IMG/VR virus record: IMGVR_UViG_3300042311_000626
Location: 1-64,000 of that record
Direction: 5' to 3' (one strand)
Source: a virus
Taxonomy: Duplodnaviria; Heunggongvirae; Uroviricota; Caudoviricetes
Length of the DNA: 64,000 nt
This document shows, one piece after another, positions 23,670 through 47,297 of this stretch; within the stretch, counting starts at the first letter, position 1; every line of letters starts with the position of its first letter. The position numbers and the translations under genes were made by a program. The notes under the pieces were generated by a model. The model did not search any database and had not been told where the DNA came from. It worked only from the letters and a program-made list of their open reading frames with translations.

Positions 23670-24032
23670 ATGAAAACATTAGAATTAAAAAAATTAATTA
23701 AAGAAGCCGTAAGAGAGGTTTTAAAAGAAGAATTAGCAGAATTAGGTAAACAGAAACTTTCTGAATCTGTTTCGTATGGTTTACCTTATACACCACCACC
23801 TGCATCTAGTAATAATGAAGCGTGGCCTACTATGAATTTTAATACTAGTAACACAAACCCTGCTTTACGAAATAGTTTAATGGAAAAAATGGGTATAGCA
23901 GATGCTATGAAACCAGAACCACCTAAAACATTCGGTGAAAAACAAGCAGTATACTCAGATTTATTATCTCAAGTAGCAGCAGAAATGAGATCAAACCCAG
24001 CTGATTTAAATAATTTTAGAAGTGTACAGTAA
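23670..24032 (+). CDS. hypothetical structural protein
   Basis: 120-aa ORF in baseplate block. Confidence 0.4.
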   Translation: MKTLELKKLIKEAVREVLKEELAELGKQKLSESVSYGLPYTPPPASSNNEAWPTMNFNTSNTNPALRNSLMEKMGIADAMKPEPPKTFGEKQAVYSDLLSQVAAEMRSNPADLNNFRSVQ

Positions 24033-24448
24033 TGGCTTACGTTAGAAGTACTAGAGTTGACCCGAGAGATTTTCAAGTCAATACCGCTATTGGTGTTGGT
24101 TTGCCTTTTAATGCTCCCGGAGTTTTTAATAGTATTTATTCTACAAGGGAGCAAATAAAATTTAATGTAATTAATTTAGTATTAACTTCTAAAGGAGAAA
24201 GAATAGAAAATCCAAACTTTGGTACCACTTTAAGGAGTCAATTATTTGGACAAATGACAGAAGAAACTTTAGATAACGTTAGAGAAGATATAATTAATAG
24301 CGTTGCAACATACATCCCAGAAGTAAACATTCAAAATATTGAATTATTAATAGAACCTAATGAATCTTCTAATACATTACTTGTAAAAATAGCATACATA
24401 ATACTCCTATCAGGAGAAACAGATAATATAACAGTTAACTTTGTATAA
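24032..24448 (+). CDS. baseplate wedge protein, GPW/gp25 family
   Basis: INLVLTSKGERIENPNFGTTLRSQLFGQ matches the gp25 core (IxxLLxTxxGERxxxPxFG). Confidence 0.7.
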   Translation: MAYVRSTRVDPRDFQVNTAIGVGLPFNAPGVFNSIYSTREQIKFNVINLVLTSKGERIENPNFGTTLRSQLFGQMTEETLDNVREDIINSVATYIPEVNIQNIELLIEPNESSNTLLVKIAYIILLSGETDNITVNFV

Positions 24449-26259
24449 TGACAGAGCAAAAAAACATATCTTATTTAAATAAGAATTTCCTTCAGTATAA
24501 AGCATCTCTTATAGAGTTTGCTAAAAATTATTTTCCTAATACTTATACCGATTTTTCAGAAGCGTCACCAGGTACGATGTTTATTGAAATGTCATCATAC
24601 GTTGGAGATGTTTTGTCTTTTTACACAGATACTCAAATACAAGAAAACTTTGTATTAACCGCTAGAGAAAAAGAAAATTTATTAAATATGGCGTATTCAT
24701 TAGGATATCGTCCTAAATCGTCATATGCATCTGTTACTACAATTGATTTTTATCAAAGAATTCCTATAGTAGCAGGACAACCTAATCTAGATTATGCATT
24801 AATAATCCCAGAAAATTTATCTTTAAGATCAGTAAGTACTAATGTTGACTTTTTAACTTTAGATCCTGTTGATTTTTCTAAAACAGAATCAGTTGAAATA
24901 ACATTGTACGATGGTAATAATTACTTATTCAAAAAATCAGTTAGAGCTATATCAGCAACAGTACAAAATCAAACATTTACGTTTGGGGCACCTGTAAAAT
25001 TTACCTCAGTTGAAATAAATGATCCAACCTTCCTTCAAATACTTCAAGCTACAGGAAGTGATGGTAGCCAATGGTATGAAGTACCTTATTTAGCTCAATC
25101 TAACATAATTAATAGAACAACTAATACTGGGCCTTCTTCTAATCAAGTACCTTATCTTTTAAGTTATTTAGAAACACCTAATAGATTTGTATCAAGAATT
25201 AGAACTGATGATGTTGTAGAACTGCAATTTGGTTCGGGTATGTATGTTAATGATAACGATGATATTATCATACCAACACCAGACAATATTCAATTAGGAT
25301 TAGTACCATCAGTTGATACTTCGGATTTAGTTAACAATTATAATCAAGCAGCTGTATTTTACACAAAACAGTACGGTACTGTACCTTCAAATATATCAAT
25401 GAATGTCCAATACCTTTCAGGTGGAGGAGTAACAGCTAATGTACCAGCAAATGATATTACTATTATTAATTCAAACGCTGGAATAAATGCTGTTAACCCA
25501 ATATATAATAACGTATCTTTAGCGACTTTAATCGCAAATAATCCATTACCTGCTGTAGGTGGCAGGAGTGGTGATACTACAGAAGAAATACGTTTAAACA
25601 CGCTAAATGCGTTCTCGGCACAATTAAGAGCTGTAACAAAAGACGATTATATGAATCGTGCTTTAAGTATGCCTTCTGATTTTGGTACCATAGCTAAAGT
25701 ATATGTTGAACAAGCATCTGCTTTATCTGTTAATTCAGGAAATGATCCTTTAATAGATAATAATCCACTTGCACTTTCAATGTATGTGTTAGCATATAAT
25801 TCTACTAAAAAATTAGAAAATGCTACTTTAAATTTAAAAACGAATTTAAAAGAATATATGGAGCCATTTAGAATGGTTACAGATGCTATTACTATTAAAG
25901 ACGCATTCTATATAAATTTAGGATTAAATTTTGATATAACTGTTATTCCTGGTTTAAGTAATAATCAAATACTAACAGATTGTATTACTGCTATTACTAA
26001 CTATTTTGATACAGATAAATGGCAGGTAAATCAACCTATAATCTTATCTAATATTAATTCATTACTGTTACAGATTAAAGGAGTACAATCGGTAGTTAAA
26101 ATAGAATTTACAAATAAATCAGGCGGAAATTATTCTCCATATAGCTATGATGTAGCAGGAGCTATTCAAAATGGAATCTTATACCCTTCATTAGATCCTT
26201 CTATATTTGAAATAAGATATCCTGAATTAGACATTCAAGGTAGAGTTGTAACTTTTTAA
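24448..26259 (+). CDS. baseplate J-like (gp6-like) wedge protein
   Basis: 603-aa ORF directly after gp25-like gene with start/stop overlap, matching gp25-gp6 synteny. Confidence 0.5.
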   Translation: MTEQKNISYLNKNFLQYKASLIEFAKNYFPNTYTDFSEASPGTMFIEMSSYVGDVLSFYTDTQIQENFVLTAREKENLLNMAYSLGYRPKSSYASVTTIDFYQRIPIVAGQPNLDYALIIPENLSLRSVSTNVDFLTLDPVDFSKTESVEITLYDGNNYLFKKSVRAISATVQNQTFTFGAPVKFTSVEINDPTFLQILQATGSDGSQWYEVPYLAQSNIINRTTNTGPSSNQVPYLLSYLETPNRFVSRIRTDDVVELQFGSGMYVNDNDDIIIPTPDNIQLGLVPSVDTSDLVNNYNQAAVFYTKQYGTVPSNISMNVQYLSGGGVTANVPANDITIINSNAGINAVNPIYNNVSLATLIANNPLPAVGGRSGDTTEEIRLNTLNAFSAQLRAVTKDDYMNRALSMPSDFGTIAKVYVEQASALSVNSGNDPLIDNNPLALSMYVLAYNSTKKLENATLNLKTNLKEYMEPFRMVTDAITIKDAFYINLGLNFDITVIPGLSNNQILTDCITAITNYFDTDKWQVNQPIILSNINSLLLQIKGVQSVVKIEFTNKSGGNYSPYSYDVAGAIQNGILYPSLDPSIFEIRYPELDIQGRVVTF

Positions 26260-27802: not shown

Positions 27803-30800
27803 ATGGCCGATAATATTAAAATAGTAGGACAAGTTACAGATATTGAGCGTATAAATCGTTATACTGCTCAAGAGGAACAATTACTTAATCCTATCTTAAA
27901 CCAGGAAACCTTTGGTTTACCTCAGGATTATATTGAATACTTTTTATTTGATCAAGGAGGAAACATCCTTAATTCAGATTACAATTATAATTCATATAAA
28001 TTACCATCCAATTCAGCATATTCACAAAGCTTACTTCCTGATATTGAAATAGATCCTATTAAAGATATACAGGATTTAGGATATGAGTCTGGGGAAGTTG
28101 TATCTCGTTATAATTTCTTTAGAAAAATATCAGGTGAACCATTTAGTAATCAATTGTTTATTCAACAAATATCTACAGATAGAACTGAATTACGTGTAGA
28201 TTCTACTGAGTTAACTGATGAAGCCTTAATTGACATAGCTGAAAATTTTGCTACTAAACAGCTTGATGTTCCTTATTATTACTATGTTATTTTAAATTTC
28301 GGTGATAATAATCAAGTAGTAGCTGTAAATATAGTAAGTGAAGTAGATCAAACAGGTAATGTTAGCATATTATTTAAATTATATGAACCATTACCAGCTA
28401 ATATTTCTTTAAAATCAACATTTTGGATTGTAGAAGAAATTGTTAATCCTTATGTGTTTGATCTTAATTTAGATAAGTTAACAACTCCACTTCCTCAACC
28501 TTTTTTAAAAGGACCTAATTTTGATATTGATTTAGAAATTAAAGAAGTAGTACCTACTCCATATAGTAATTTAAATCAGTTAGTAACATCTTTTACAGGC
28601 TCATCTTATCAAGCCGTATTAAATTCATTAACAAATCAAAATGTAAATATAAATGTAGATTATAGTGCATTTAATGAATTTGTTCACTACAGTTCAGCTA
28701 CAAGTAGAGTAAATAATTTTTTAAATAAGATAGGTGAAATTGAAGGATACCAATATGAAATTAGTACTCTTTCACCATTAACATCTAGTAATGCTTCTTT
28801 AGTAAATCAAGTAACAAGAGCAAGTTCTAGTTTAAATACAGTAATAGGTGGTTTTGATGGATTTGAAACTTACTTATACTATACTTCTAGTTCTTTAACT
28901 TCAAGTATAACAACATATGCTTTAGAATCAGGATCATATTTTATTTATAACGTTGCTCCTTATCCAAAATCTAACAGTACAAAACCATACACATTATATG
29001 CTTCATCATCAGTTATAGTTCAATCTTGGTATAACGATACTATTGAAGTAGCTGGTGAGTTTGATTTAACAAATAAAGATATATTAGTTAACACAATACC
29101 ATCATATATAACAGATGATCCAGACAATTATCTACCATATATTGTATTTGTTGAAATGATAGGTCAATATTTTGATAATGTTTGGATTTATATAGATAAA
29201 TTAACAGATGTATGGGATAATAATAACAATCTAAATGAAGGTATATCTCAAGATTTAGTATATGATTGGTTACAATCGTTTGGGATGAAATTATACAATT
29301 CTCAAGGTAACCAAAGTGTATTAGATTATAATGTAGGTGGATTTAGTGGTAGTGTTGATTTTGCTCCTAATTGTGTTAGCTACCGATTTACTAACACCTC
29401 AGGTAATTTTCTATTTCAAACTTATACCTCATGTAATGGAACCCCAGATGCTGTATCCGTACCACCATTTAATGGAACTTCAGAAGTATGCGCTATATCG
29501 GGAAGCTATTTACCATTAACTTCAGGAATTACAGTAACAGATTTAGGACCTTGTTATAATGGGGATTATTCACCATCAAGTAGTTTTTTAAATAATGTAC
29601 CTAGAAAAGATTTAGTACTAGATACTTATAAAAGACTTTATCATAATTTACCTTACTTATTTAAAGGAAAAGGTGCACATGGTGGTTTACAAGGCTTAAT
29701 TACCTTATTTGGTATTACTGGTTCAATTCTTCCTATTAAAGAATATGGTGGGATGAACGACTACCAAGATTTAAAAGGATATACAACAGATAAAATATCA
29801 ATTGGTTCTAATAACATCACAGGAAGTATTTTATCTCCTATAAAACGTTTAGAAACCACTACAACATCATCTAGAGCAATTAAAAGTCAAGATTTACATT
29901 TTATTGATGTATCTTTTTCACCTCAAACACAAATAGATGAGGCTGTATCTGCTTCTATAGCTGCTTCTAACCCATCATGGGTTATAGATGACTATATAGC
30001 ATATCCTCAAGCTTTATATTTAGATAATTATCCTTCTTTATCATACCAAAGAGATTATTGGTTTGGTCAAACATTTACACATCCAAATGAAGGATTCGAC
30101 TATGCTGGGTTTATTAGATTAATTCAATTCTTTGACAATTCATTATTTAAAATGGTTAAAGATTTTACTCCTGCTAGAGGTAATACTTGGACAGGGGTAT
30201 CTATTAAATCACCAGTATTAGAACGCCCTAAAGTACCAGAAGCTAGACCTGTATCCAATGTTCAGATAGATTTAGATGGTGCTATAACGGGTGCTGCTAT
30301 AATCCCTATATATGATCCATATTACGAATATCTATCAGGAGATAAAGTAGCTTACTATAATGGTGAAATTACAGGTTCATTTATTGATACTTACATATAT
30401 TTTGAAGAAAACAATATAAATCCTTATTTAGTCAACAATACAGCAGGAGTAGTACCTCCTGGGTTTATGGGTGGGAATACTGATTTTATATTAGATTATA
30501 ATGCCGTATTTTATGAGAATTTTTTCTATAATTCAAGTTTTAATGCTTTATTTAATAATGTAAGTAAAAGTTTAGAATCTAGCTTTAGAAAAAAATTAAC
30601 TCCTATTATGTCAACTGATAGTTTAGGAAGAGTTTTTACATCATATTCTATTGAAGAACCTGTAGATCTACAAGATTCATATTTAAGCTTACATGCACAT
30701 GTAAATTCAAGATATAATGGAGTTCAATTATTTGGTAGATTTTATAATGTATGGACACCAGGAGATGTAGCATATGGTCAATCTCCAGTTATTACTCATA

Positions 30801-32650
30801 ATACTAAAAAATTAGGATTATTTACAGAAGTTGTAAACAGTATATTACCTTATAAATCAAATGTTAAATTAAAATATCTAGTTAATGAAGTTGGAGGATT
30901 TACTGAATTAAACCAGAGAAACAGAAACTGGCAAGAAGTACAAAACACATTTAAAGCAGGTAATTCATTAAACGTATCTTTATTTAATTCACAACAATAT
31001 TCAAATCAAGCACAAACTAATGGTAATAAAGTTATTTACGAAAGTGGATATTCTTATTTCCCTACTTTTTACATGTTTGGTTTTGAATCTGCAAGTTATG
31101 AATCACAATCTATATTTAATACTGTAGGAGGAGGAAACTCAGCAATTGTTGATAGATTTTTTACTCTATATCCCTCTGGAGGTCTTATAGTATCAGGTGG
31201 AGTAAATCCATCAACCCAATATGTTTCTTCAAGTTATTTAGGAACAGGAAATAAGTATGAAGTCTGGAATATGTTTAGTTTAACGGCTCCTAACTCCAAT
31301 CTAGGATTATATTATAATTTTGGAACTGGTCCGGGTGCTGGAAATGTATTAACTTCTTCATATTATACATTAGCTACAGAAGGGGACTATATGTTCACAT
31401 ACAATTTTAGTATTTTTGTAGAAGGTCCTTTAAACTCAGAATTAACAGCTAGTATGCAATTATGGAAAAGTGGCTCTTCAGGTATAAGTATGTTAACAGA
31501 AAGTACTCAAAGCTTAACAGCTAAAATGAGAACTAATTACTATAATGGAACTTTGTCTTCTTTTGAAGATTTTTCAGGACCGGCCCAATACGTACCAGAT
31601 CCTACTCAAAATAAAACACTATTAAATGGGTATATATTATATTCATATGATGGAATAAACCCAAATCCAATAAGCACGGAGACGTTTTTAGCAGATACTC
31701 TATATTCTGCTTATAATGTTTATGTTTATATTGGTAATGCTCTTGATGACTCCTCTAACAGTGATATTGGTGGTAGTGATATTGATGGTGTTGGTGTTGG
31801 TAATCCTGTACTTATAGATCAAAATAATGTTCCTATTCAAAGCTATTTTGCTGGGACCATTTGGATAAAAGATGGGTCAGGAATACCAGGAAGTCCTACT
31901 ACTCCTAAATATACATTTATATCACGACCATTTTCAGGACCTCAACCTCAAACATTAAACTTTAATAGAAATTTCCTAGTAGAAATTGACCAATTTAATT
32001 ATGTAGTAGGTGATAAAATTGGATTTAGATTTTTTGTAGAATCTAATGTAGGCCCAGTAACAGCTTCTCTTCTTAGAACTAATAATAGCATATTACAGGT
32101 AGTTCCTACTAATGACTCTTTATTAGTGACAACTTCGTCTGTATGTGTTAATCAAGCTGCTAATTCTTTTTATCTATCACCTCAGTTATCCCCTTTCTTT
32201 AGTACTAATTATATATTTAACCCGTTAGATACTTTAATATCTTCATCATATGCTAATTTATATTTAGAATATGGAGATATTTTATATCCATTTGCTTTAC
32301 AAGAAAATGATAAAATTATTGTTCAAGTAATAGATGAAAATGGACCTTTCTTGGAATACACAGTTAGTAATATTATATATAGTGGAAATGGTATTGTTTA
32401 TATACAAACTAAAGAAGATATAAGTGGGTATTTTGAGGATCGTTGTAATAAATTTTTTAAAATTATTTTCTTAAAACGTGTAAATGACGAAACCAATATT
32501 ATAGTTAACCTAATTAAACCAAATGGAAAAACATCTTATGGATTTTCAATCCCTCAAAACATAGCACAAAATGTTTTAAACAATATAGATGTCATAACAG
32601 TTAATACTAAACAACAATTAATTGACGCAGGAATCAATTTAACTCAATAA
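27803..32650 (+). CDS. giant tail fibre / receptor-binding structural protein (1615 aa)
   Basis: Very long Asn/Ser/Thr/Tyr/Gly-rich ORF in baseplate/fibre position. Confidence 0.6.
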   Translation: MADNIKIVGQVTDIERINRYTAQEEQLLNPILNQETFGLPQDYIEYFLFDQGGNILNSDYNYNSYKLPSNSAYSQSLLPDIEIDPIKDIQDLGYESGEVVSRYNFFRKISGEPFSNQLFIQQISTDRTELRVDSTELTDEALIDIAENFATKQLDVPYYYYVILNFGDNNQVVAVNIVSEVDQTGNVSILFKLYEPLPANISLKSTFWIVEEIVNPYVFDLNLDKLTTPLPQPFLKGPNFDIDLEIKEVVPTPYSNLNQLVTSFTGSSYQAVLNSLTNQNVNINVDYSAFNEFVHYSSATSRVNNFLNKIGEIEGYQYEISTLSPLTSSNASLVNQVTRASSSLNTVIGGFDGFETYLYYTSSSLTSSITTYALESGSYFIYNVAPYPKSNSTKPYTLYASSSVIVQSWYNDTIEVAGEFDLTNKDILVNTIPSYITDDPDNYLPYIVFVEMIGQYFDNVWIYIDKLTDVWDNNNNLNEGISQDLVYDWLQSFGMKLYNSQGNQSVLDYNVGGFSGSVDFAPNCVSYRFTNTSGNFLFQTYTSCNGTPDAVSVPPFNGTSEVCAISGSYLPLTSGITVTDLGPCYNGDYSPSSSFLNNVPRKDLVLDTYKRLYHNLPYLFKGKGAHGGLQGLITLFGITGSILPIKEYGGMNDYQDLKGYTTDKISIGSNNITGSILSPIKRLETTTTSSRAIKSQDLHFIDVSFSPQTQIDEAVSASIAASNPSWVIDDYIAYPQALYLDNYPSLSYQRDYWFGQTFTHPNEGFDYAGFIRLIQFFDNSLFKMVKDFTPARGNTWTGVSIKSPVLERPKVPEARPVSNVQIDLDGAITGAAIIPIYDPYYEYLSGDKVAYYNGEITGSFIDTYIYFEENNINPYLVNNTAGVVPPGFMGGNTDFILDYNAVFYENFFYNSSFNALFNNVSKSLESSFRKKLTPIMSTDSLGRVFTSYSIEEPVDLQDSYLSLHAHVNSRYNGVQLFGRFYNVWTPGDVAYGQSPVITHNTKKLGLFTEVVNSILPYKSNVKLKYLVNEVGGFTELNQRNRNWQEVQNTFKAGNSLNVSLFNSQQYSNQAQTNGNKVIYESGYSYFPTFYMFGFESASYESQSIFNTVGGGNSAIVDRFFTLYPSGGLIVSGGVNPSTQYVSSSYLGTGNKYEVWNMFSLTAPNSNLGLYYNFGTGPGAGNVLTSSYYTLATEGDYMFTYNFSIFVEGPLNSELTASMQLWKSGSSGISMLTESTQSLTAKMRTNYYNGTLSSFEDFSGPAQYVPDPTQNKTLLNGYILYSYDGINPNPISTETFLADTLYSAYNVYVYIGNALDDSSNSDIGGSDIDGVGVGNPVLIDQNNVPIQSYFAGTIWIKDGSGIPGSPTTPKYTFISRPFSGPQPQTLNFNRNFLVEIDQFNYVVGDKIGFRFFVESNVGPVTASLLRTNNSILQVVPTNDSLLVTTSSVCVNQAANSFYLSPQLSPFFSTNYIFNPLDTLISSSYANLYLEYGDILYPFALQENDKIIVQVIDENGPFLEYTVSNIIYSGNGIVYIQTKEDISGYFEDRCNKFFKIIFLKRVNDETNIIVNLIKPNGKTSYGFSIPQNIAQNVLNNIDVITVNTKQQLIDAGINLTQ

Positions 32651-32667
32651 AAAAATTAAAATATATA

Positions 32668-32676
32668 ATATTTATA
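32668..32676 (+). promoter_or_regulatory. late-type motif ATATTTATAA
   Basis: 16 nt upstream of ATG 32693. Confidence 0.4.
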
Positions 32677-32692
32677 AACAAATTAATTAATA

Positions 32693-33355
32693 ATGGCTAT
32701 ATTAAACAATAATACAGTAACCGTAGATGCTATTTTAACAGCTAAAGGAAGAGAATTATTAGCTAGAAATGATGGTTCATTTAGAATCACTCAATTCTCT
32801 TTGGCAGACGACGAAGTAGATTATACATTATACAATCCACAACACCCTTCAGGATCAGCTTTTTATGGACAAGCTATTGAAGCTATGCCTGTAATGGAAG
32901 CATTTCCTGATGATACGCAGATAATGATTTACAAATTAGCAACTTTACCTAGAGGTACATCTAAATTACCTGTTATTAATGTTGGTTATAACAGTATATC
33001 ATTGAAACAAGGAGCTACTTTAACAATTACTCCTCAAACATTGAATTACTTAGGTGCTACTAGTACATTTGAAGCTAACGGGTACGCTGTTACAATTGCG
33101 GATGTTAGATTCTTATCTACATTCTCAGCAACGGGTGTTGCTGGTTCTGAAACTACACCAACAGGTATTACATCAACAGTAGGTTCACAATTAAGTCAAA
33201 CTATTATAGGTACTTCGTTTACATTAACTGGTACTACTATTAATACATTATTTGGTTCTGGTTTAAATCAAATCACAACTACAATTACAGTATTAGGTAG
33301 AGATAGTGGAGCTAGAATAACAATACCATTAACAATAACTAAATCAAACTCATAA
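32693..33355 (+). CDS. structural protein (220 aa)
   Basis: Thr/Ser/Gly-rich beta-type composition, late motif upstream. Confidence 0.45.
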   Translation: MAILNNNTVTVDAILTAKGRELLARNDGSFRITQFSLADDEVDYTLYNPQHPSGSAFYGQAIEAMPVMEAFPDDTQIMIYKLATLPRGTSKLPVINVGYNSISLKQGATLTITPQTLNYLGATSTFEANGYAVTIADVRFLSTFSATGVAGSETTPTGITSTVGSQLSQTIIGTSFTLTGTTINTLFGSGLNQITTTITVLGRDSGARITIPLTITKSNS

Positions 33356-33361
33356 TAATAT

Positions 33362-34384
33362 ATGTCATTCGTAAGATACACACCAGAAGATTCTGTAGTA
33401 AGTACTGAGGCTATTGTAAGACCAATGTGGAGTGGTGATGAAAATGTATTATCTACATTTTACACTTCTAGTGCTATTACAAGTCCTTTTTACTTAAATG
33501 TCTACTCCAATTATCCAGGAGCTTTAACTTCTACTACGGAGTCAGTTCAATTAGCTATTCAATATGGTAACAAATATGGAAGTGGTTCTAGTTATATAAA
33601 TAACGGAGTTACAACTGTCTTACCGGATGGTTCATCACTTACAACTTCTAGAGTTGTATATGGTCAATATAGGACATTATTATTAGGGACTGAAAGTGGT
33701 AGTTTTGAGTTTAATAATGACAACCCAAATGGTATTTACATCATAAATGTTGCTAGAAATAGATATAAAGAACACATTCAACCAGGTTCAATGACATTAA
33801 AATTGAAAAATGGATTTAATGAAATTTCTTTAACAGATAATAGTCAAATATCTAGTACAACAAATTATACAACAGCAGGTACTTTATATTATACTTTAAT
33901 TTCAGGTAGTGCAGGTACGGCAGCTACAGCAGCTACTAATGCTTCTGTGTATGGTTACTTATACCCAGATAGTGATATTATTATTTTAAATCCTACAGCT
34001 TTAAGTAAATCTATTGTAGATGGAGGTATATCTTATAATCCTACAGTAAATGCACCTGGAACTAATAACAATATTCAAACAGGAATATATCAGATAATGT
34101 CTGGGAGTTCTTATTTTGCTTTACAATCTGAGGAGAATGTCTCTTCTCATTTGTTCTTTACTAGAGTTAAAAATCAAGACTTTAATTACACTACTAACCC
34201 ATCTATTATTGATGCTAATGGTAATTTAATATATACTACATTAATTAACAATCCTCAAACATACATTACTACTGTAGGTATGTATAATGATCAGAATGAG
34301 TTATTAGCTGTTGCTAAATTAAGTAGACCATTGGTAAAAGATTTTACAAAAGAAGCATTAATTCAAGTAAAATTAGATTACTAA
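33362..34384 (+). CDS. tail fibre-like structural protein (intact copy of a duplicated gene)
   Basis: N-terminal region parallels 34410..37025; C-terminal YITTVGMYNDQNELLAVAKLSRPL nearly identical to the C-terminus of 37813..38163. Confidence 0.5.
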   Translation: MSFVRYTPEDSVVSTEAIVRPMWSGDENVLSTFYTSSAITSPFYLNVYSNYPGALTSTTESVQLAIQYGNKYGSGSSYINNGVTTVLPDGSSLTTSRVVYGQYRTLLLGTESGSFEFNNDNPNGIYIINVARNRYKEHIQPGSMTLKLKNGFNEISLTDNSQISSTTNYTTAGTLYYTLISGSAGTAATAATNASVYGYLYPDSDIIILNPTALSKSIVDGGISYNPTVNAPGTNNNIQTGIYQIMSGSSYFALQSEENVSSHLFFTRVKNQDFNYTTNPSIIDANGNLIYTTLINNPQTYITTVGMYNDQNELLAVAKLSRPLVKDFTKEALIQVKLDY

Positions 34385-34409
34385 TTTAATCAATAACAAA
34401 TGTTAATAA

Positions 34410-37025
34410 ATGGGTTCATTCAAAAAGTTAAAATCTTCGGATGTTATAACAGTACCTGTTGTAGCAAATAAAAGTTGGAACTTTAATTATTGTCCGGTTC
34501 CAACTAATGACCCTTATGTTTCGTATTATAATGGTATAAATTCAACAGATCTATTTAATCCTAATGAGGATTGGATAACTAATGGACATTATGATAGGTT
34601 AACGTATAGACAGATTAACCAATTATTTTACCATGACTTTTCAGGTAGTTTAAATACATCTTCATTAGCATCATCATTATATTATGAATCAGCTAGCAGT
34701 AGTCACCCTACTGCTTCATATTTTAACTATAACAATGACCCTGCTTTTATTTCTAATTTCCCAACAGGAGCAAATGAGGAAATAAAGGTAATACAAATAT
34801 CACCTAAAGCTTACGGAAGTAGATTATTACCTTATACTTTCCAAATGTCATCATCTCAGTATAATTTTTATGATGATGGTAAGGGTAATGTTTATGATAA
34901 CTTTAATAGTAATCCACCAGCTCACGTAGGTAATATTTTTTATGAACAAGGTACAGTAGTAATTACTAGTCAAGATTTTCAAACATTATTTGTATTACCT
35001 CCAGTAGCGTACGATGATAATTACACAATTATACGAAGTGACTACCCTAACCCAGCAACATTCTCATTTAATCCTTTAATAAATGATGATTTAAGGGGTA
35101 ATACATTAGTAAATCAATCTATTACTTTATTTGGAGGGGATATATCATTCTTTAGTACAGGTTCTAGTAACACTGTATCTATGTCTTTCTCTGGTTTAGG
35201 AGTAGGGACATATCAAACTTTTTATACATTTTTAGTTACTGGTTCTTATTGTGCTCCTTTACGTAGTGGTACAGGAAGTATAACAGTAAATGTAACAGAT
35301 CCAGAATGTGAATTTGAAATAGGTATTATAGAAATTTCACCACCAGCACCATCTGTAACACCAACACCAACTATATCTGTTACTCCAACTGTTACACCAA
35401 CAACAACACCAACTATATCTGTTAGTAGAACTCCATCGGCTACACCGTCAGTAAGTCCTACACCAAGTATAAGTGTTAGTAGAACACCATCAGTAACACC
35501 AAGTAGAACACCTAGTATAACACCATCAATAACGCCTTCGATTTCAATTAGTGCAACACCTAGTGTAACACCATCAATTTCAATAAGTGCTACACCAAGT
35601 GTAACTCCAAGTGTAACGCCTTCAATTTCGATAACGCCATCGATTTCGATTAGTGCTACTCCTAGTACAACACCATCGATTACACCTTCGATTTCGATAA
35701 GTGCTACTCCAAGTGTAACACCATCAATTTCGATAAGCGCTACACCAAGTATAACGCCGAGTATAACACCGTCTATTAGTATAACACCTTCAATTTCGAT
35801 AAGTGCAACACCATCTGTTACACCATCTGCTACTCCTAGTATTACGCCTAGTATTAGTATAAGTGCAACACCATCTGTTACACCATCAATTTCTATAAGT
35901 GTTACTCCTAGTATAACGCCATCGATTTCAATTACACCTAGTATATCGATTAGCGCAACACCATCTGTTACTCCTAGTATTTCTATTTCTAATACTCCAA
36001 GTGTAACGCCTAATATATCAAGTACACCATCGATTAGTATTACACCATCTATTAGTATTACACCATCGATTAGTATAAGCAAAACACCTAGTGTTACACC
36101 AAGTGTAACGCCTTCAATTTCGATAACACCATCGATTTCGATTAGTGCTACACCATCTGTTACTCCTAGCATAACACCAAGTATATCGATTAGTGTTACA
36201 CCAAGTATAACACCATCAATATCGGTTAGTAAAACACCTAGTGTAACACCAAGTAGAACACCTTCTACTTCATCACCATCAGTTATTCGCCAAGCAATAA
36301 GTTGTTGTGATTCTAGAAAAGAAGGAATGGTAATACCAGCGGCATTTATAGGAACAGTAGTAACATCAACAACAGATGAATGTTTCTTTATAAACAGTAA
36401 TATTGAACCAGTTGCAACTATAACGTGGAGTGGTGATTTAGGGTTTGAAGATTGTAATGCATGTACAGCATTTAATCCATGCCCTGCTCCACCATCACCA
36501 TCTACTACTCCAAGTATTAGTGTAAGTAGAACACCTAGTGTTACTCCAAGTATAACACCATCGATTAGTATAACGCCATCTATTAGTGTAAGTAGAACAC
36601 CTAGTGCTACTCCAAGTGTAACACCATCAATATCGGTTAGTAAAACACCAAGTGTAACGCCTTCAATTAGTATTAGTAAAACACCAAGTGTAACGCCTTC
36701 AATTAGTATTAGTAAAACACCATCAATTACACCAAGTATAACACCATCAGTATCAGGTATATCATATACATTCTATGCTAATGATTGGACTCCTGGTACA
36801 CCTTGTGGTCCTGCTTATGGTATATGGTTAGGTAGTGACGGTTATTATTATGCTACTGATGATGGTGCCGTTACATTTACATTAATGTATTCTTTAGCAG
36901 AATTTTGGTACCAATATCAATATTATGACCCATTTTTTGGATTTGATGTATATGATGAGTATTCAGTAAATTTTACATCAACAATAATAAACTATGAGGG
37001 ACAATTACCGTTCACATGTTTTTAA
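34410..37025 (+). CDS. structural protein with two long Thr-Pro-Ser tandem-repeat linkers and Cys-rich modules
   Basis: N-domain paralogous to 33362 ORF; ~310 aa of TPSISISATPSV-type repeats, Cys-rich island, second repeat block, aromatic-rich C-terminal domain. Confidence 0.6.
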   Translation: MGSFKKLKSSDVITVPVVANKSWNFNYCPVPTNDPYVSYYNGINSTDLFNPNEDWITNGHYDRLTYRQINQLFYHDFSGSLNTSSLASSLYYESASSSHPTASYFNYNNDPAFISNFPTGANEEIKVIQISPKAYGSRLLPYTFQMSSSQYNFYDDGKGNVYDNFNSNPPAHVGNIFYEQGTVVITSQDFQTLFVLPPVAYDDNYTIIRSDYPNPATFSFNPLINDDLRGNTLVNQSITLFGGDISFFSTGSSNTVSMSFSGLGVGTYQTFYTFLVTGSYCAPLRSGTGSITVNVTDPECEFEIGIIEISPPAPSVTPTPTISVTPTVTPTTTPTISVSRTPSATPSVSPTPSISVSRTPSVTPSRTPSITPSITPSISISATPSVTPSISISATPSVTPSVTPSISITPSISISATPSTTPSITPSISISATPSVTPSISISATPSITPSITPSISITPSISISATPSVTPSATPSITPSISISATPSVTPSISISVTPSITPSISITPSISISATPSVTPSISISNTPSVTPNISSTPSISITPSISITPSISISKTPSVTPSVTPSISITPSISISATPSVTPSITPSISISVTPSITPSISVSKTPSVTPSRTPSTSSPSVIRQAISCCDSRKEGMVIPAAFIGTVVTSTTDECFFINSNIEPVATITWSGDLGFEDCNACTAFNPCPAPPSPSTTPSISVSRTPSVTPSITPSISITPSISVSRTPSATPSVTPSISVSKTPSVTPSISISKTPSVTPSISISKTPSITPSITPSVSGISYTFYANDWTPGTPCGPAYGIWLGSDGYYYATDDGAVTFTLMYSLAEFWYQYQYYDPFFGFDVYDEYSVNFTSTIINYEGQLPFTCF
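35341..36285 (+). repeat. coding tandem repeat array of Thr-Pro-Ser units (first block)
   Basis: Dozens of 18-36-nt units such as acaccatcgatttcgataagtgctacaccaagtgtaacgcct; in-frame within 34410..37025. Confidence 0.85.
36490..36762 (+). repeat. coding Thr-Pro-Ser tandem repeats (second block)
   Basis: [16 protein letters not shown]... units. Confidence 0.8.
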
Positions 37026-37048
37026 AAATATTTAATATAAAATAATTT

Positions 37049-37789
37049 ATGCCAGATTTTCAAATATACTATCAAGAAGGAAATTCACCTGGACCATTTG
37101 ATATTTACTTATCAGGAACTTCAGGATTGCAATTATATGCTTCAGGAGTAACTCAAGCTCAATTGGATGGAGGATATTTTATTACTCTTCCTAGTGGGTT
37201 TACTTCATCGTCTATTGTTGTAGTTAATATGTCATTTGGTTGTGCTACACAAGATATAGTACCGTTTCCAACGCCATCTATATCTATTACACCATCGATT
37301 AGTATAACACCTAGTATAACACCAACTGTTACTGTAACACCAACTAGAACTGTAACTCCTAGTCCAACTATTAGTGTAACACCTAGTGTAACACCACCAC
37401 CTAGTAATACACCAAGTGTTACCCCAAGTGTTACCCCAAGTGAAACACCTCTTATTTCATTAACACCAACTCCTTCTATATCAATTAGCAGAACACCATC
37501 AGTTACACCACCCGCATCTAGTTTGTTGTATATAGGTACTCCTTCTGGAGCTTATACTCAAGCTTATTTAGCTTGTAATGCATATCCAGCATTTGCATAC
37601 GCTGCCTATTATGTTAATTCAGTGGGAGGTATAGCACCTGGAAATTATGTATATGGAGATGCAGCTCTTACAATACCTGTTAATGGATTTGACAGATGGG
37701 TTGCATTATCATATCTAGGAATTGGACCCATAGTAGGTGTAATCCAAATAGGCACTTCAGGACTTATTTTAAATTCTACTATTTGTTAA
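37049..37789 (+). CDS. structural protein with Thr-Pro-Ser repeat linker
   Basis: Same TPSISI(T/S) repeat family between two globular segments. Confidence 0.5.
37270..37515 (+). repeat. coding Thr-Pro-Ser/Val tandem repeats
   Basis: [24 protein letters not shown]... in 37049..37789. Confidence 0.75.
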
Positions 37790-37812
37790 TATAATTATAA
37801 TAAAATAATAAT

Positions 37813-38163
37813 ATGGGATATTCTCCACCGCCACCAAGTTTTAACATTTCGTTTCAAAACGAAGTGATAATCTATGAGCAAAACGTAATATGTCATGTTA
37901 AGGATAATGAATTTAATGCTTCATATAACCCAACATTATTACAAAATAATTTATTTACAGGAAGTACTTTTATATCACAATCATTAAATACACCTTTACC
38001 TGAATTAAAATATTTTGCAACATCTTCATATTTTGAACCTTATGTTACAACTATAGGATTATATAATGAACAAAACGACTTATTAGCTGTTGCTAAATTA
38101 TCTCAAGCATTACCTATATCACAAAATACAGATATGACTTTTGTCATAAAATACGATAAATAA
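37813..38163 (+). CDS. small protein carrying the conserved fibre C-terminal module
   Basis: YVTTIGLYNEQNDLLAVAKLSQAL matches the C-terminus of 33362 ORF. Confidence 0.5.
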   Translation: MGYSPPPPSFNISFQNEVIIYEQNVICHVKDNEFNASYNPTLLQNNLFTGSTFISQSLNTPLPELKYFATSSYFEPYVTTIGLYNEQNDLLAVAKLSQALPISQNTDMTFVIKYDK

Positions 38164-38177
38164 AATAAATTAACGTT

Positions 38178-38609
38178 ATGGAAAATAAATGGTTACACTC
38201 GGAGGAATTTGATCCTCAAGACTACTTTGGATTTGTATATAAAATTACAAATCTTACTAACAGTAAATTCTATATTGGTAAGAAATATTTCTACCATACT
38301 TCCAATGTTAAATTGGGGAAAAAAGAATTAGCAGCACTTCCCGTGACTCGAGGAAGAAAATCGACTACAAAGCAAGTAATTAAGGAAAGTGACTGGAGAT
38401 CTTATTGGGGTTCATCTAAAGAATTACAACAAGATGTTAAAGAATTAGGAACTGAAATGTTTGAATGTATTATTCTAAAACTTTGTAAAGATAAAAAAGA
38501 ATTAACATATTACGAATTACATTATCAGTGCATAAATGAATGCTTACTTAATTATAATTCATATAATGACAATATATTAGGTAAATTCTTCCGCAAAGAC
38601 TTAATTTAA
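38178..38609 (+). CDS. GIY-YIG endonuclease, catalytic domain only (free-standing homing-endonuclease-like)
   Basis: GFVYKITNLTNSKFYIGKK (GIY...YIG), FECIILK and ELHYQCINECLLNYNSYN parallel I-TevI FECSILEE and ELNSKINGYN. Confidence 0.6.
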   Translation: MENKWLHSEEFDPQDYFGFVYKITNLTNSKFYIGKKYFYHTSNVKLGKKELAALPVTRGRKSTTKQVIKESDWRSYWGSSKELQQDVKELGTEMFECIILKLCKDKKELTYYELHYQCINECLLNYNSYNDNILGKFFRKDLI

Positions 38610-38673
38610 ACCCGCTTGGAAAACCCAGAAATCTTTATTACCTTCGCCCTACAGGGTTTGAAAACATAAAAAA

Positions 38674-39633
38674 ATGGAAATAAAAGAAGAGGGAATAAGA
38701 GAAAAAATGGTTCTAACGGTAATAGAATCGGTATTAGGAAGGAGTAAATCTACGGCACGTCGTAATATTGCCGTCCCATGTCCATTTTGCCATCACTCTA
38801 AACCTAAATTAGAAATTCAACTTCACACCAATGAAAAAAAGGAAAATCCTTGGCATTGTTGGGTATGTGGTGAAAAAGGTAAGACACTTATTTCATTATT
38901 TAAAAAAGTAAAGGCACCTTCTCACCGAATTCAAGAATTAAATAATTTAATTAAACCGGGTAGTAAAATGGTAGAAGTTAACCAAACGGTTTCTCTACCT
39001 AAAGAATTTATTTCTTTATATAATGTTGATTCTTTAGATACTATAACGGCTATTGAAGCTAAACACGCTATTAAATTTTTAAAAAAGCGAGGAATTACCG
39101 AAAACGACATTTTAAAATATAATATTGGTTTTTGCCCTAGTGGTCCATATGATCATCGCATTGTAGTACCTTCTCATGATGCTAATGGTGATTTAAATTA
39201 TTTTAGCACTCGAACTTATCGTGATGATGAATCTCAAAAATACAAAAATCCATCTGTAGGAAGAAATATTATTGGTTGGGAATATTATATTAACTGGGAT
39301 GTTCCTTTGATTTTAGTTGAAGGTATATTTGATGCTTTAACCATTAAACGAAATGTTATACCATTATTTGGTAAAGATATTTCTGAAACATTAATGAAGA
39401 AAATAGTTGGTTCTCAAGTACAAAAAATATATATTGCTCTAGATAATGATGCTTTAAAACAAGCCATCAAACATTGTGAAACACTACTTTCTTATGGTAA
39501 GGAAGTATATCTAGTTGAACTAGGAGGTAAAGATGCTAATGAAATAGGATTTGAAAATTTCCTAAATACCATTGAACAAACCCAGCCTCTTAATTTTTCA
39601 ACACTTATAAATAAAAAAATAGAATTGATATGA
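38674..39633 (+). CDS. DnaG-type DNA primase (zinc ribbon + TOPRIM)
   Basis: CPFCHH...WHCWVCGEKGKTLISLFKK CHC2 zinc ribbon; TOPRIM acidic motifs ILVEGIFDALT and IALDNDA. Confidence 0.7.
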   Translation: MEIKEEGIREKMVLTVIESVLGRSKSTARRNIAVPCPFCHHSKPKLEIQLHTNEKKENPWHCWVCGEKGKTLISLFKKVKAPSHRIQELNNLIKPGSKMVEVNQTVSLPKEFISLYNVDSLDTITAIEAKHAIKFLKKRGITENDILKYNIGFCPSGPYDHRIVVPSHDANGDLNYFSTRTYRDDESQKYKNPSVGRNIIGWEYYINWDVPLILVEGIFDALTIKRNVIPLFGKDISETLMKKIVGSQVQKIYIALDNDALKQAIKHCETLLSYGKEVYLVELGGKDANEIGFENFLNTIEQTQPLNFSTLINKKIELI

Positions 39634-40415
39634 TCGACAGAAATGCCAACGTCATAAAAGACGTTAAAATAAAAAGAATCGTTGAGTATAGCGCAGATAA
39701 TAAACAAATTAACGTGTTAGACCAACGTTTTTATAGACGAAATGGAGAATATTACCCATCTGTATCCAGTATTTTAAATTATTTCCCTAAAAACCAATTT
39801 TTTCATTCTTGGTTAAAAGATGTAGGACATAATTCAGACATTATTGCATCTAAAGCAGCAGCCGAAGGTACTCAAGTACACACTGCTATTGATGATTTTT
39901 TAAATGGAGAAGAAATTAATTGGTTAGATGAATGGGGTAATGCTAAATATTCTCTTGACGTTTGGAAAATGATTTTAAAATTTGCTGACTTTTGGAACAC
40001 ACACAAACCAGAATTAGTAGCGACAGAATATCATTTATTTTCAGATGAACATAAATACGCAGGTACAACAGACATTGTATGTCGTTTAAATGAACAATTA
40101 TGGTTATTAGATAATAAAACATCTAATTCATTACATACATCAATGGATTTACAATTAGCATCTTATGCTAAAGCATGGAACGAAACCCATGATGAAAAAA
40201 TTGAGCGAACTGGTATTTTATGGTTAAAAGCAGCCACTCGTGGTGAAGATAAAAGCGGTAAGAAAATACAAGGTAAAGGATGGCAATTAAAAGAGATAGA
40301 CGAAATTGAACGAAATTTTGAAATGTTTCTTAAGATATATGACATTTATACCTTAGAAAACCCTGACGCTAAACCGGCAACGGAAACGTTACCAACAACT
40401 TGTAAGATAGAATAG
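39630..40415 (+). CDS. PD-(D/E)XK-type nuclease (RecB/Cas4/lambda-exonuclease-like)
   Basis: AGTTDIVCR...LWLLDNKTS fits D...(D/E)xK after a hydrophobic strand; co-located with primase. Confidence 0.45.
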   Translation: MIDRNANVIKDVKIKRIVEYSADNKQINVLDQRFYRRNGEYYPSVSSILNYFPKNQFFHSWLKDVGHNSDIIASKAAAEGTQVHTAIDDFLNGEEINWLDEWGNAKYSLDVWKMILKFADFWNTHKPELVATEYHLFSDEHKYAGTTDIVCRLNEQLWLLDNKTSNSLHTSMDLQLASYAKAWNETHDEKIERTGILWLKAATRGEDKSGKKIQGKGWQLKEIDEIERNFEMFLKIYDIYTLENPDAKPATETLPTTCKIE

Positions 40416-44231: not shown

Positions 44232-47200
44232 ATGAGACCAATAGATAAATTTATATTACATGTTATTCATAACTGGGAGAATGGGCTGAATGAAGCTTAT
44301 GCTCCTTCTGTTATGACTAAATTAATGGATAAATTTAAAGAGGAAGCAGATGATTTAAATATAGAAATCAATGACGAACAATTAAAAAAATATATTGAAC
44401 GTTTTGATGTTTTAAAAAATTCCCCTAAAATTCCTGAAAAAGATTTATTTAAATATTCATTATCACAACTAATTCGATTAGTTACTTCTTCTAAAGGAGC
44501 AGAAACACCTGAAACAGTAGATATTACTCCTGATGTAGTATATCATAATGATGATGATACTATTATTGTTTATAATGGTTCTAAAGAAGACAATTGTGTC
44601 AATTATGGTCGAGGTGAAAGATGGTGTATTACAAGAGGTTCTTATGGAAACTACAGATACAGTGGGGATAGATCATATCCAACATTCTATTTAGCTCAAA
44701 ATAATAATTTATCAAATAATGATCCTTTAAGCTTTGTTGCTATACAAGTCAGAGACCCCAAAACAACTTCAGAAAACCAAAGATACGTTTATACAAACCG
44801 ATCTAATTCTCCTCATGAATCTCAACCAATGAGTTTTACTCAATTAGAGAGAGAAGTTCCTTGGTTACGTGAAATACCAAACGTTCAACAAGTACTTAAA
44901 TATATACCACTAAATACAGGAGAAAAAGTAACCCAACAATATAAAAATAAACCTATTGGGATTAGAGAATGGATTAAATTACCATTTGAGGTTAAACAAC
45001 AATATTTAGTAGTTAGAAAAGGCAGAAAATTATTTGATGATATTTCAAATGATGAATTTTTATCTAAATATTTATCTAAATTACCTCAACTAGCTGAATT
45101 TATTGCTATTACTCCTGGGATAATAGAAACTGAAGAATTATTAAAACATTTAGAAAGTTTTTCAAATAGTGATAGAAGATCTATTATCGCAAACATGCGA
45201 GACAAAATAGATACATCTGAACTAAAAGCAGATAAATTACCATTTGATGTTAAAAAATTATTAACAACATTAGATAAATGGAAATTAAACAATAATGAAA
45301 GAATATACGTTACTAAAGATGGTAACGCTATTGTTAAATTAGAACTAGGAGATAATATTACAGCGGGTATTTATACTGCTGAAGATGATTATCCTAGTAT
45401 TAAATTAAATAAAAGAACATCAAAATATATAACAGATTATCCTGAATTAGATAAAATACCATTTAGAGATTTAGCTAAATTAGTCTCTGATGAAATAATA
45501 GACCAGACACTTTTAGACCAAACTTTAGAAACAGCTAAAAACAATCCAAATTCTGCTATTATAGTTAAAGATACCGATAATGGACAGATTATTGTTGATT
45601 CAAATTCATTTGCTTCATATAAAATAGAAAATGGTAAGATAAATCAAATACCATTTGATAGTGAAGAAGTACAAGCTATATTTGACGAACAAGACGACAA
45701 TGAATCTTTTCAACAAAATGTAATAAATTTATTTACTTCTCGAGAAAATATACCTTCTCAAATAGATAGAGTAGGTTTAACTTCTATTTTAAAATCAACT
45801 TCAAATGAAAAAAGGATAATTAGTAATACTGATTATTCTAATTATCCCCTAGTTATACTAACAACGGATGAAGAAAATCCATTAATATTTACAACTACTG
45901 CTCTTCCTAATGTTCGAGGAGAAAATCCTTTTTATTCTAAAACAGTATATGGAAAAAAAAGCGATTGGAGAAATGTATCTATCAATGAACGCTTCACCCC
46001 CGAAATGTTAGATGCTTATTTTGCTTATTTAAGAGGATTAAATCAAACATTTACAGATGAAGGTTTAATTAATGCTCTTTCATCATATGGGATGCCAACT
46101 GATCTTAAAAGATCAATATTAACAAACCCAAATTTACCTTTACAAGACACAAACATATATCGTCCTGTAGAATATAATGATACAGTATATTTAATTAATA
46201 CTAGAAACCCCGCTGATAGTAAAAAATTATCTGATACATCAGGTAAACTAATTAAAGCAAATATTAATGCTACTGCTGCTAGACGTTTATTAGGAGCACA
46301 AGCACAACAAGCAGAACCAGAAGCGCCAGCAGCCGCTCAACAAACAGCACCTCAAGCACCAGTAGCACCACAAGATGGGGCTCCTAGGAGAGGAAGACCA
46401 GCTGGTGTAGGGAATACACCTCGTGTTCCACAAGAAAGACAAAGAGGTGATGTAAACATAGCAGATGCTTTTAGTGAAAGAGGTTTAAGAATTGGATTTG
46501 GTAGTCTACCTAGAAATGATTTTAGAAGATTAAATGTTACAGATGCTGTTGCTTTAAACAGAATAGGTGATAGAGGAGCTTCGGCTAGAGATAATTTATT
46601 AACTGGACAAGGTCGAGTTACTAATGTTATTAGTGTAGGACCAAGTAAAATATACTTCATTAGATTAAATAATGATACACGAATAGCATCTATAAACATA
46701 CAACCAGGAAATAGAAATTATGTAGTAGTGGGTGATAGATCATATTCTTTAAATTCACCACGTGAATTAGTAAGTTTCTTACAAAACAGAAATATACTAG
46801 AGACTTTGAGAACATCATTAGTTAAATTACATTTACAAGAAAATCCATATATGATAGAGGAAATGAAAAATTTAAAAAATAAAACACCAATGAAAGAAAC
46901 ATATAGCGCAGAAGAAAGTTTTAAAGATTATTCAAATGACGCTTTAACAGATATGATCATAAACCTTTCAAGATATGAAGGTAATGAAAAAGAAATACAA
47001 GGTGTTAAGGATGAATTAGCAAGACGTAAACAATCTAACAATAAAAACATGAAAATAAATGAGTTTAAATCTCTAGTTAGGGAAGTAATTAAGAAAAAAC
47101 TAGCAGAAAACCAACCAGCACCTTCAAGAGAAACACCTGAACGTGGGACTGAAACTATTCCTGATAGAGGTACTGAAGAAGAGAAAAAACGTCGTAGAAT

Positions 47201-47297
47201 TGGTAACCCAAATGTGGAACCAAGACCTAAAGCGATGAATGAAAATGAGCAAGAAATTATTAAACAAATTGTAGCACGTTTTAAATCTAAAAAATAA
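44232..47297 (+). CDS. large hypothetical protein (1021 aa)
   Basis: Ala/Pro/Gln low-complexity hinge (AQAQQAEPEAPAAAQQTAPQAPVAPQDGAPRRGRPAGVG), RGD tripeptide, basic C-terminus. Confidence 0.5.
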   Translation: MRPIDKFILHVIHNWENGLNEAYAPSVMTKLMDKFKEEADDLNIEINDEQLKKYIERFDVLKNSPKIPEKDLFKYSLSQLIRLVTSSKGAETPETVDITPDVVYHNDDDTIIVYNGSKEDNCVNYGRGERWCITRGSYGNYRYSGDRSYPTFYLAQNNNLSNNDPLSFVAIQVRDPKTTSENQRYVYTNRSNSPHESQPMSFTQLEREVPWLREIPNVQQVLKYIPLNTGEKVTQQYKNKPIGIREWIKLPFEVKQQYLVVRKGRKLFDDISNDEFLSKYLSKLPQLAEFIAITPGIIETEELLKHLESFSNSDRRSIIANMRDKIDTSELKADKLPFDVKKLLTTLDKWKLNNNERIYVTKDGNAIVKLELGDNITAGIYTAEDDYPSIKLNKRTSKYITDYPELDKIPFRDLAKLVSDEIIDQTLLDQTLETAKNNPNSAIIVKDTDNGQIIVDSNSFASYKIENGKINQIPFDSEEVQAIFDEQDDNESFQQNVINLFTSRENIPSQIDRVGLTSILKSTSNEKRIISNTDYSNYPLVILTTDEENPLIFTTTALPNVRGENPFYSKTVYGKKSDWRNVSINERFTPEMLDAYFAYLRGLNQTFTDEGLINALSSYGMPTDLKRSILTNPNLPLQDTNIYRPVEYNDTVYLINTRNPADSKKLSDTSGKLIKANINATAARRLLGAQAQQAEPEAPAAAQQTAPQAPVAPQDGAPRRGRPAGVGNTPRVPQERQRGDVNIADAFSERGLRIGFGSLPRNDFRRLNVTDAVALNRIGDRGASARDNLLTGQGRVTNVISVGPSKIYFIRLNNDTRIASINIQPGNRNYVVVGDRSYSLNSPRELVSFLQNRNILETLRTSLVKLHLQENPYMIEEMKNLKNKTPMKETYSAEESFKDYSNDALTDMIINLSRYEGNEKEIQGVKDELARRKQSNNKNMKINEFKSLVREVIKKKLAENQPAPSRETPERGTETIPDRGTEEEKKRRRIGNPNVEPRPKAMNENEQEIIKQIVARFKSKK

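Follow-up and report, generated by a model that had tools for sequence, protein, structure and literature searches.

Apparent gene fission at a domain boundary and Pro-Thr-Ser linkers in the fibre locus of an immuto-like myophage

Receptor-binding proteins of tailed phages can be modular, as in T7 gp17 and the tailspike sets of CBA120 and G7C, where a conserved anchor is combined with exchangeable distal domains. Ig-like decoration domains occur on phage structural proteins, and in secreted bacterial glycoside hydrolases Pro/Thr(/Ser) linkers join carbohydrate-binding modules (CBMs). The branched fibres and spikes of Klebsiella phage phiKp24 are a further example of modular receptor-binding proteins (PMC9700779). 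We analysed a locus at positions 33,362 to 38,163 of a 64,000-nt stretch of DNA from a Caudoviricetes virus (positions 1 to 64,000 of IMG/VR record IMGVR_UViG_3300042311_000626; the whole stretch is hereafter called the window), for which an initial annotation had proposed a duplicated fibre gene whose second copy was split and inflated by Pro-Thr-Ser (PTS) repeats. The four open reading frames (ORFs) on which that proposal was built are all present on the + strand and encode 340, 871, 246 and 116 aa, the 871-aa ORF lying at 34410-37025 and the other three as given in Table 1. The family of the 340-aa protein is referred to below as P1, and the single-chain protein encoded next to P1 in relatives as P2.

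Both proteins have counterparts in Flavobacterium phage immuto (gp165 and gp166) and Microcystis phage Mel-JY01 (WWT39513-39517), where they are encoded in the same gene order after the baseplate wedge genes and are all annotated as hypothetical. Immuto gp165 is the orthologue of the 340-aa protein, and gp166 unites in one chain the N-terminal domain (N-domain) of the 871-aa protein and the module that the window encodes as the 116-aa ORF (C-module). The immuto and Mel-JY01 proteins are unsplit and carry no PTS linkers, whereas in the window the chain is broken, there are two linker proteins and the tips can be swapped. We found no description of this arrangement in the literature on immuto, Mel-JY01, PT-rich linkers in phage tails or gene fission in tail fibres.

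The locus resembles modular receptor-binding proteins in its conserved N-terminal anchor, its variable tip, the presence of several proteins per locus and recombinational exchange, but it differs from them in keeping the partner module of the anchor as a small separate gene that closes the locus, and in having as its stalk a PTS linker of disordered type in place of a trimeric beta-helix or coiled coil. As in the PT-linked glycoside hydrolases, long PT(S) linkers part small Cys-containing or aromatic-rich modules; unlike those enzymes, the window proteins have no catalytic domain and no CBM family match, and their setting is a phage baseplate. The likeness to Ig-decorated structural proteins lies in a cadherin-like Ig domain that follows the anchor in the 871-aa protein, although no Pfam Ig family was matched at threshold and the domain here forms part of a larger protein with a stalk.

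Splitting of P2 in the window and its relatives

Profile comparisons with hhalign related the two ends of the unsplit protein to two different ORFs of the window. Residues 1-236 of immuto gp166 (357 aa) aligned to residues 1-189 of the 871-aa ORF (probability 97.7%, E 2e-12), and residues 248-356 aligned to residues 11-115 of the 116-aa ORF (probability 99.8%, E 6e-30). A 591-aa protein of Mel-JY01, encoded by the last gene before its GIY-YIG gene, also matched both halves at its ends with ~400 aa between them, its N-terminus aligning with the 871-aa N-domain at a probability of 89%. The gene after the 340-aa ORF is therefore the orthologue of the single-chain P2, and the comparison with related phages that the initial annotation had proposed does yield a single unsplit gene in both of them. 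These alignments show that P2 has undergone gene fission exactly at the domain boundary with both halves kept: the front piece is homologous to the N-part and the back piece to the C-part, order, strand and locus are the same, and both pieces are retained as functional genes. The split thus stands, but into two pieces and not the three first proposed, as the 246-aa ORF showed no similarity to any part of unsplit P2 and is an extra PTS-linker gene rather than a third fragment.

The 871-, 246- and 116-aa ORFs each occupy a different reading frame and repeats are hard to assemble, as would be expected if a single long gene had been broken by frameshift errors in the repeats or were a pseudogene. 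However, the same ORF boundaries were found in independent assemblies from different samples (L003, L005, L011, L013, L014, L017 and L020), and a second assembly of another sample encodes an 870-aa orthologue with an array as long as that of the 871-aa protein. Both spacers are closed by stops in all three frames, and each ORF begins 0-3 codons past a stop. The ratio of nonsynonymous to synonymous substitution rates (dN/dS) was 0.06-0.10 over aa 1-308 of the 871-aa protein, 0.12-0.22 for the 116-aa C-module and 0.35-0.43 for the N-domain of the 246-aa protein. Given purifying selection on all of the pieces and a split that is kept in many metagenomic relatives, we concluded that the locus is the product of neither decay nor assembly error, an explanation that is effectively refuted. 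A fusion of the pieces by frameshifting was likewise rejected because of the stops in all frames of both spacers, as was an intron or intein between the halves, since no Rfam family was found in 32000-40000, the intervening DNA is ordinary coding sequence and the GIY-YIG gene lies downstream of both halves.

P1, by comparison, was always unsplit. More than 7,500 homologues were found in metagenomes, the best 120 of which had 53-100% identity and mostly 320-359 aa, and its dN/dS was 0.04-0.12. The C-module of the 340-aa protein recurs in the 116-aa ORF as initially annotated (BLASTP 37% over 84 aa, E 1e-10; hhalign probability 98.7%, E 2e-16), but the recurrence is not almost verbatim, the 24-aa motif being identical at 17 of 24 positions. 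The paralogy proposed for the N-terminal ~200 aa of the 340- and 871-aa ORFs is weak: BLASTP found none, but a profile-profile comparison was collinear over 174 columns (probability 12-42%, E 2e-3 to 3e-4) with three motifs aligned, and the predicted strand order of the two proteins agrees from residue ~120 on. Duplication is accordingly firm for the C-module but not beyond it. Searching the PDB with profiles of these two families, that of the 340-aa and that of the 116-aa protein, gave no match.

The C-module showed one local resemblance to a described fibre domain, the N-terminal domain of gpH-type fibres of phage P2 (PF12571/DUF3751), in which YVTTIGLYNEQNDLLAVAKL was matched with WMRELGLYDDAGTLIAVANM over 29 columns (hhalign probability 82%, E 1e-5). 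We keep this resemblance as a lead but did not accept membership in PF12571, as the match was local and restricted to these 29 columns and no Pfam match was found in the 35 family members scanned; the module also stands at the C-terminus here and at the N-terminus in gpH-type fibres. In the family of the 220-aa protein encoded ahead of P1, residues 13-50 weakly resemble the start of the gpH N-terminal domain (hhalign probability 51%, E 1.6e-4), and the C-module resembles a later hairpin of it.

Two surveys of viral contigs were made, seeded with the C-module and with the N-domain, respectively, with some contigs present in both. Across the two surveys 126 loci were scored, P2 being fused in 43 and split in 83. 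Fused P2 proteins, which consist of an N-domain and a C-module of ~100 aa, mostly had 283-357 aa with a few of up to 610 aa; C-module proteins of 1,608 and 2,057 aa were left unclassed, their N-domain match being weak or absent. In split loci, the distance from the stop of the N-protein to the start of the C-module was 0 to 9,380 nt, and minimal splits with adjacent genes only 0-12 nt apart exist. The C-module was found in all 55 loci having at least 6.7 kb of downstream sequence. For its stand-alone family 383 homologues were detected, nearly all of 94-129 aa among the 120 listed, on contigs of up to 174 kb.

The C-module ended at most 6 residues from the protein C-terminus in 292 of 293 occurrences and, in the loci listed, the N-domain started at residue 1. 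All additional sequence is therefore found between them, and ranges from 0 to ~2,000 aa in fused proteins and from 0 to 9.4 kb of DNA in split loci. The sole exception among the 293 was a 320-aa protein (L058, 9968-10930) in which the module occupies residues 9-129 and is followed by a further 191 residues. In a neighbour-joining tree built from the neighbouring P1 protein, fused and split states were interleaved, suggesting that P2 passed through several fused/split transitions or cassette exchanges. In the first survey, PTS linkers were present in 19 of the 31 split N-proteins and in none of the 40 fused proteins, and the N-domain of the 246-aa protein, which is kept in many split loci, was absent from the 40 fused loci.

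PTS linkers, tip domains and their exchange

The 871-aa protein proceeds from its N-domain through the Ig domain, PTS array 1, a 6-Cys mini-domain and PTS array 2 to an aromatic-rich tip (Table 1). The inflation of the front half of P2 by PTS linkers was borne out (871 aa versus 331-574 aa in most relatives), as were the Cys-rich and aromatic-rich domains said to separate the arrays, the 6-Cys mini-domain lying between them and the tip after them. In outline, the initial reading of a split and duplicated gene that PTS linkers have inflated is correct. The Ig domain was recognized by its fold, a seven-strand Ig-type beta-sandwich matching cadherin repeats; a Pfam search of residues 1-308 at E up to 10 gave no Ig/cadherin or other family, and no fold match was found for the N-domain (aa 1-194). 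The 6-Cys mini-domain, which also follows PT(S) linkers in P0241, P0242, P0244, P0247, P0251, P0253, P0255, L011, L013 and L014, had no Pfam or PDB match. The aromatic-rich tip is rare, occurring in only 13 clusters among 1.84 billion representatives, some with unrelated N-termini, and a PDB sequence search with the tip domains returned only a marginal endoglucanase match (E 0.026). Scans of Pfam, PHROGs and NCBIfam with all proteins of the locus and with the isolated small domains gave nothing useful; matches to phrog_15511 were discarded as low-complexity matches to the PTS arrays.

The three PTS arrays, ~1.46 kb in all, lie at the positions initially annotated, and no other in-frame coding segment of this kind occurs in the window. 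Another segment flagged by the scan, 46283-46387, was rejected, as it contains a stop and is out of frame with ORF 44232-47297. A 308-aa ORF on the - strand (35246-36172) with a high content of G, V, L and I mirrors the PTS-coding repeats and is an artefact, not a gene.

The arrays had been described as near-perfect nucleotide tandem repeats, a description that we could not sustain. Tandem Repeats Finder (TRF) reported mostly 65-94% matches, with one short row at 56% and one 35-nt row at 95%; the periods in array 1 were 18, 36 and 150 nt, at 65-94% matches. The longest exact direct repeats measured 29 nt (array 1), 50 nt (array 2) and 19 nt, and the only truly near-perfect stretch was found in array 2, with 3.1 copies of a 36-nt unit at 92% matches. 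The nine copies of TPSISISA are encoded by nine different DNA strings and the 22 copies of TPSISI by 19. Conservation of the PTS repeats is therefore at the peptide level, their synonymous sites being scrambled.

This bears on the slippage-prone character that had been ascribed to the arrays, by which they would form a contingency locus where slipped-strand mispairing gives phase variation or rapid length variation within a population. The window and L014 do have arrays of different length owing to indels, the difference from L011/L013 is ~620 nt, and the 36-nt unit of array 2 also counts in favour of this reading. However, near-perfect short units are otherwise lacking, and neither a frame-shifting unit nor a promoter location was found: the TRF periods (12, 18, 24 and 36 nt and larger) are all multiples of 3 and all inside coding sequence. 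With units of 18 and 36 nt slippage stays in frame and cannot switch a gene on or off, and phase variation is therefore unsupported. The length differences, moreover, are seen between lineages at 83-92% identity and not within one population. We consider a contingency locus very improbable, and the earlier reading is corrected to one of repeats maintained as peptide and not as DNA.

Linker length and tip domains differ sharply even among phages whose P1 is 96-97% identical to that of the window. Among phages with 83-92% nucleotide identity, the P2 N-protein has 450, 451, 574, 870 or 871 aa and three different tips. In L011 and L013 (P1 96-97% identical), it has 450 aa and ends after the 6-Cys domain with no aromatic tip, array 1 of the window being the one longer by ~620 nt, while in L014 (P1 96-97% identical) an 870-aa protein follows the same plan with array indels and an unrelated tip domain; the N-proteins of 451 and 574 aa belong to more distant relatives and bear other tips. 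These comparisons show that recombination between close relatives alters the length of the linkers and exchanges the tips. All breaks in nucleotide homology between the window and the five relatives compared fall inside the PTS arrays (at 35525-35529, 36150, 36481 and 36685), which is moderate evidence that the PTS-coding arrays may act as recombination joints.

Models of the assembled appendage

We consider it probable that the split P2 forms a variable adhesion whisker, in which the freed end bears a PTS stalk with exchangeable tips while the two halves re-associate. P1 and P2 each have an N-domain that opens the chain and a beta-rich C-module of ~100 aa that closes it. If the baseplate holds P2 at its two ends, elaboration would be possible only between them, and a break in the chain would convert a loop into a stalk with a free end. 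The N-domain would then re-associate non-covalently with the separate C-module in the baseplate, as the two presumably do within one chain in the unsplit orthologues, and the freed C-terminal end of the N-fragment would carry the long flexible stalk with its exchangeable small binding domains. The similar PTS-coding arrays would serve as joints for linker and tip recombination. An adhesion or glycan-binding role of such an appendage, as initially annotated, is plausible.

Several points weigh against the whisker. It presupposes that these proteins are virion components and that the N-domain and C-module bind each other. No fold or family could be assigned to the N-domain or the C-module, neither of which has an annotation or a solved structure, and an AlphaFold2 (AF2) prediction of the 340-aa protein from a 14-sequence alignment was poor (predicted local distance difference test, pLDDT, of 52) and was left out of the fold search. 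For the tip domains, neither a similarity to known binding modules nor a match to a CBM family could be detected. Breakpoints in low-complexity arrays are in part an alignment artefact, alignments tending to end there. Shared ancestry might by itself account for the two halves occurring together. Finally, 246-type genes end at most 40 nt from the start of the C-module gene in 37 of 42 cases, and this tight pairing could make the 246-aa protein, and not the 871-aa protein, the partner of the C-module.

The same constant neighbour, a 246-type gene rather than the N-protein gene, would be expected if the 116-aa gene were an independent third paralogue, encoding either a baseplate subunit that consists of the C-module alone or an adaptor of the 246-aa protein, with no physical link to the 871-aa protein, so that the split would be a matter of history only. 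The separation of the halves by up to 9.4 kb with other genes between them also fits this explanation. We regard it as unlikely, as the 116-aa module matches the C-module of P2 (E 6e-30) far more closely than that of P1 (E 2e-16), a C-module is present in every N-protein locus with sufficient sequence downstream, and splits of 0-12 nt exist.

By analogy with the small genes found downstream of tail-fibre genes, the 116-aa protein might instead have arisen from the C-module as an assembly chaperone acting in trans or as a transient cap, which would aid folding or docking of the 871-aa and/or 246-aa proteins and be no stable virion subunit. Its gene is small, stands last in the fibre block and is abutted by most 246-type genes, and the module, like intramolecular chaperone domains, always stands at the end of the chain. 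Those domains are helical, however, whereas the predicted secondary structure of the C-module is all-beta. The 116-aa ORF had no match to the Tfa, gp38 or S74 families in Pfam, PHROGs and NCBIfam, and in the unsplit orthologues and P1 the module makes up one third of a protein of ~310-340 aa with no sign of a cleavage site. A chaperone therefore seems to us quite unlikely.

Returning to the whisker, a more far-reaching form of it is possible but doubtful, namely a two-piece docking clamp, in which repeated fission at one boundary makes the N-domain and C-module into bookends that re-assemble in the virion around a hypervariable island of 0-9.4 kb composed of stalk-and-tip adhesin cassettes recombined via PTS joints. 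If true, this would be a plug-in system for the diversification of host range or adhesion in myophages that are abundant in the environment (metagenome-derived). Host range is determined mainly by the adsorption proteins of a phage, and the locus offers a concrete and apparently recurrent route to elaborate them, by which a small protein with fixed chain ends would be broken at a domain boundary and its freed end would bear low-complexity stalks and exchangeable tips. If the halves do re-associate, they would constitute a natural split-protein docking pair and a handle for display engineering on myophage baseplates.

Genomic setting and upstream motif

The window has a GC content of ~30%, with long ORFs and all of the genes discussed on the + strand. 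Its source is an immuto-like myophage, and the locus lies in the genes that follow the gp25-like and gp6-like baseplate genes, at the far end of the baseplate and fibre gene block. The order of a giant protein gene, the 220-aa gene, the 340-aa gene, more fibre-like genes, a SegE-like GIY-YIG endonuclease gene and a primase gene is common to the window, immuto and Mel-JY01, and in the relatives examined the 220-aa gene is similarly placed. No family matched the giant protein of 1,615 aa; its length differs in close relatives (1,536, 1,537, 1,611 and 1,612 aa), and immuto gp162 can be aligned only to its first ~820 aa.

The GIY-YIG gene is the conserved right-hand neighbour of the C-module gene and lies outside the fibre proper. 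It was found at the same place in immuto, Mel-JY01 and metagenomic relatives, either directly or one small gene after the fibre block, and a homing-type nuclease beside a hypervariable locus might favour local exchange. In L001 it lies at 21483-21920, and the immuto copy is labelled 'NAD synthetase', the label of phrog_447 and seemingly a misannotation. Between the C-module and GIY-YIG genes of L013 (10546-11133), L006 (10329-10922) and L009 (10303-10983) there is an additional gene of 195-226 aa, which is absent from the window. Metagenome-assembled genome (MAG) bins of related contigs (L184-L187) carried the labels Gammaproteobacteria, Saccharibacteria, Sphingobacterium and Pelagibacter; the viral contigs in these MAGs are evidently mis-binned, and no host was therefore inferred for the clade from them.

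Table 1. Positions of the features discussed, in window coordinates
Feature	Position	Strand	Remark
gp25-like baseplate wedge gene	24032-24448	+	Upstream of the locus
gp6-like baseplate wedge gene	24448-26259	+	Upstream of the locus
Giant 1,615-aa protein gene	27803-32650	+	Precedes the 220-aa gene
Exact ATATTTATA ahead of the locus	32668-32676	+	17 nt ahead of the 220-aa gene; candidate promoter of the gene run 220-340-871-246-116
220-aa conserved protein gene, ahead of the P1/P2 pair	32693-33355	+	66% identity to immuto gp164, 38% to the Mel-JY01 orthologue
P1 (340 aa), N-part and C-module copy 1 (C-module ~aa 254-340, nt 34121-34381)	33362-34384	+	44% identity to immuto gp165
P2 N-domain, aa 1-194 of the 871-aa ORF, presumed baseplate anchor	34410-34991	+	hhalign to immuto gp166
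Cadherin-like Ig domain, aa ~195-308	34992-35333	+	
PTS array 1, ~315 aa, TPSISISA/TPSV/TPSI units	35341-36285	+	TRF
6-Cys mini-domain, aa 626-693	36286-36489	+	Recurs in relatives
PTS array 2, ~92 aa	36490-36762	+	TRF
Aromatic-rich tip and stop codon	36763-37025	+	Rare domain
246-aa second linker protein: N-domain aa 1-72, PTS array 3 (37270-37515), variable C-domain	37049-37789	+	
Stand-alone P2 C-module, 116 aa	37813-38163	+	hhalign to immuto gp166 248-356
SegE-like GIY-YIG endonuclease gene	38178-38609	+	Pfam PF19835, E 5e-29
ATATTTATA copies	18465, 20768, 26267, 32668, 40424, 43265, 48307, 50231, 53318, 54513, 56128, 58010	+	

A ATATTTATA-type upstream motif had been ascribed to each of the three genes of the split copy. 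The only exact copy in the region in fact precedes the 220-aa gene; no ATATTTATA-type copy was found before the 340-, 871- or 246-aa ORFs, and a copy with one mismatch lies at 37791, upstream of the 116-aa ORF. The exact 9-mer occurs 12 times in the window, always on the + strand, where shuffles expect 6.9 occurrences on both strands together. Most copies lie at most ~35 nt upstream of a start codon, that at 43265 being ~65 nt from the next listed ORF. Scans for sigma-70 promoters and terminators stayed at or near chance level. We regard ATATTTATA as a candidate phage promoter element. The ORF at 19997-20752 matched Sigma-70 region 2 (Pfam E 1.7e-5), and a phage-encoded sigma-like factor could read ATATTTATA.

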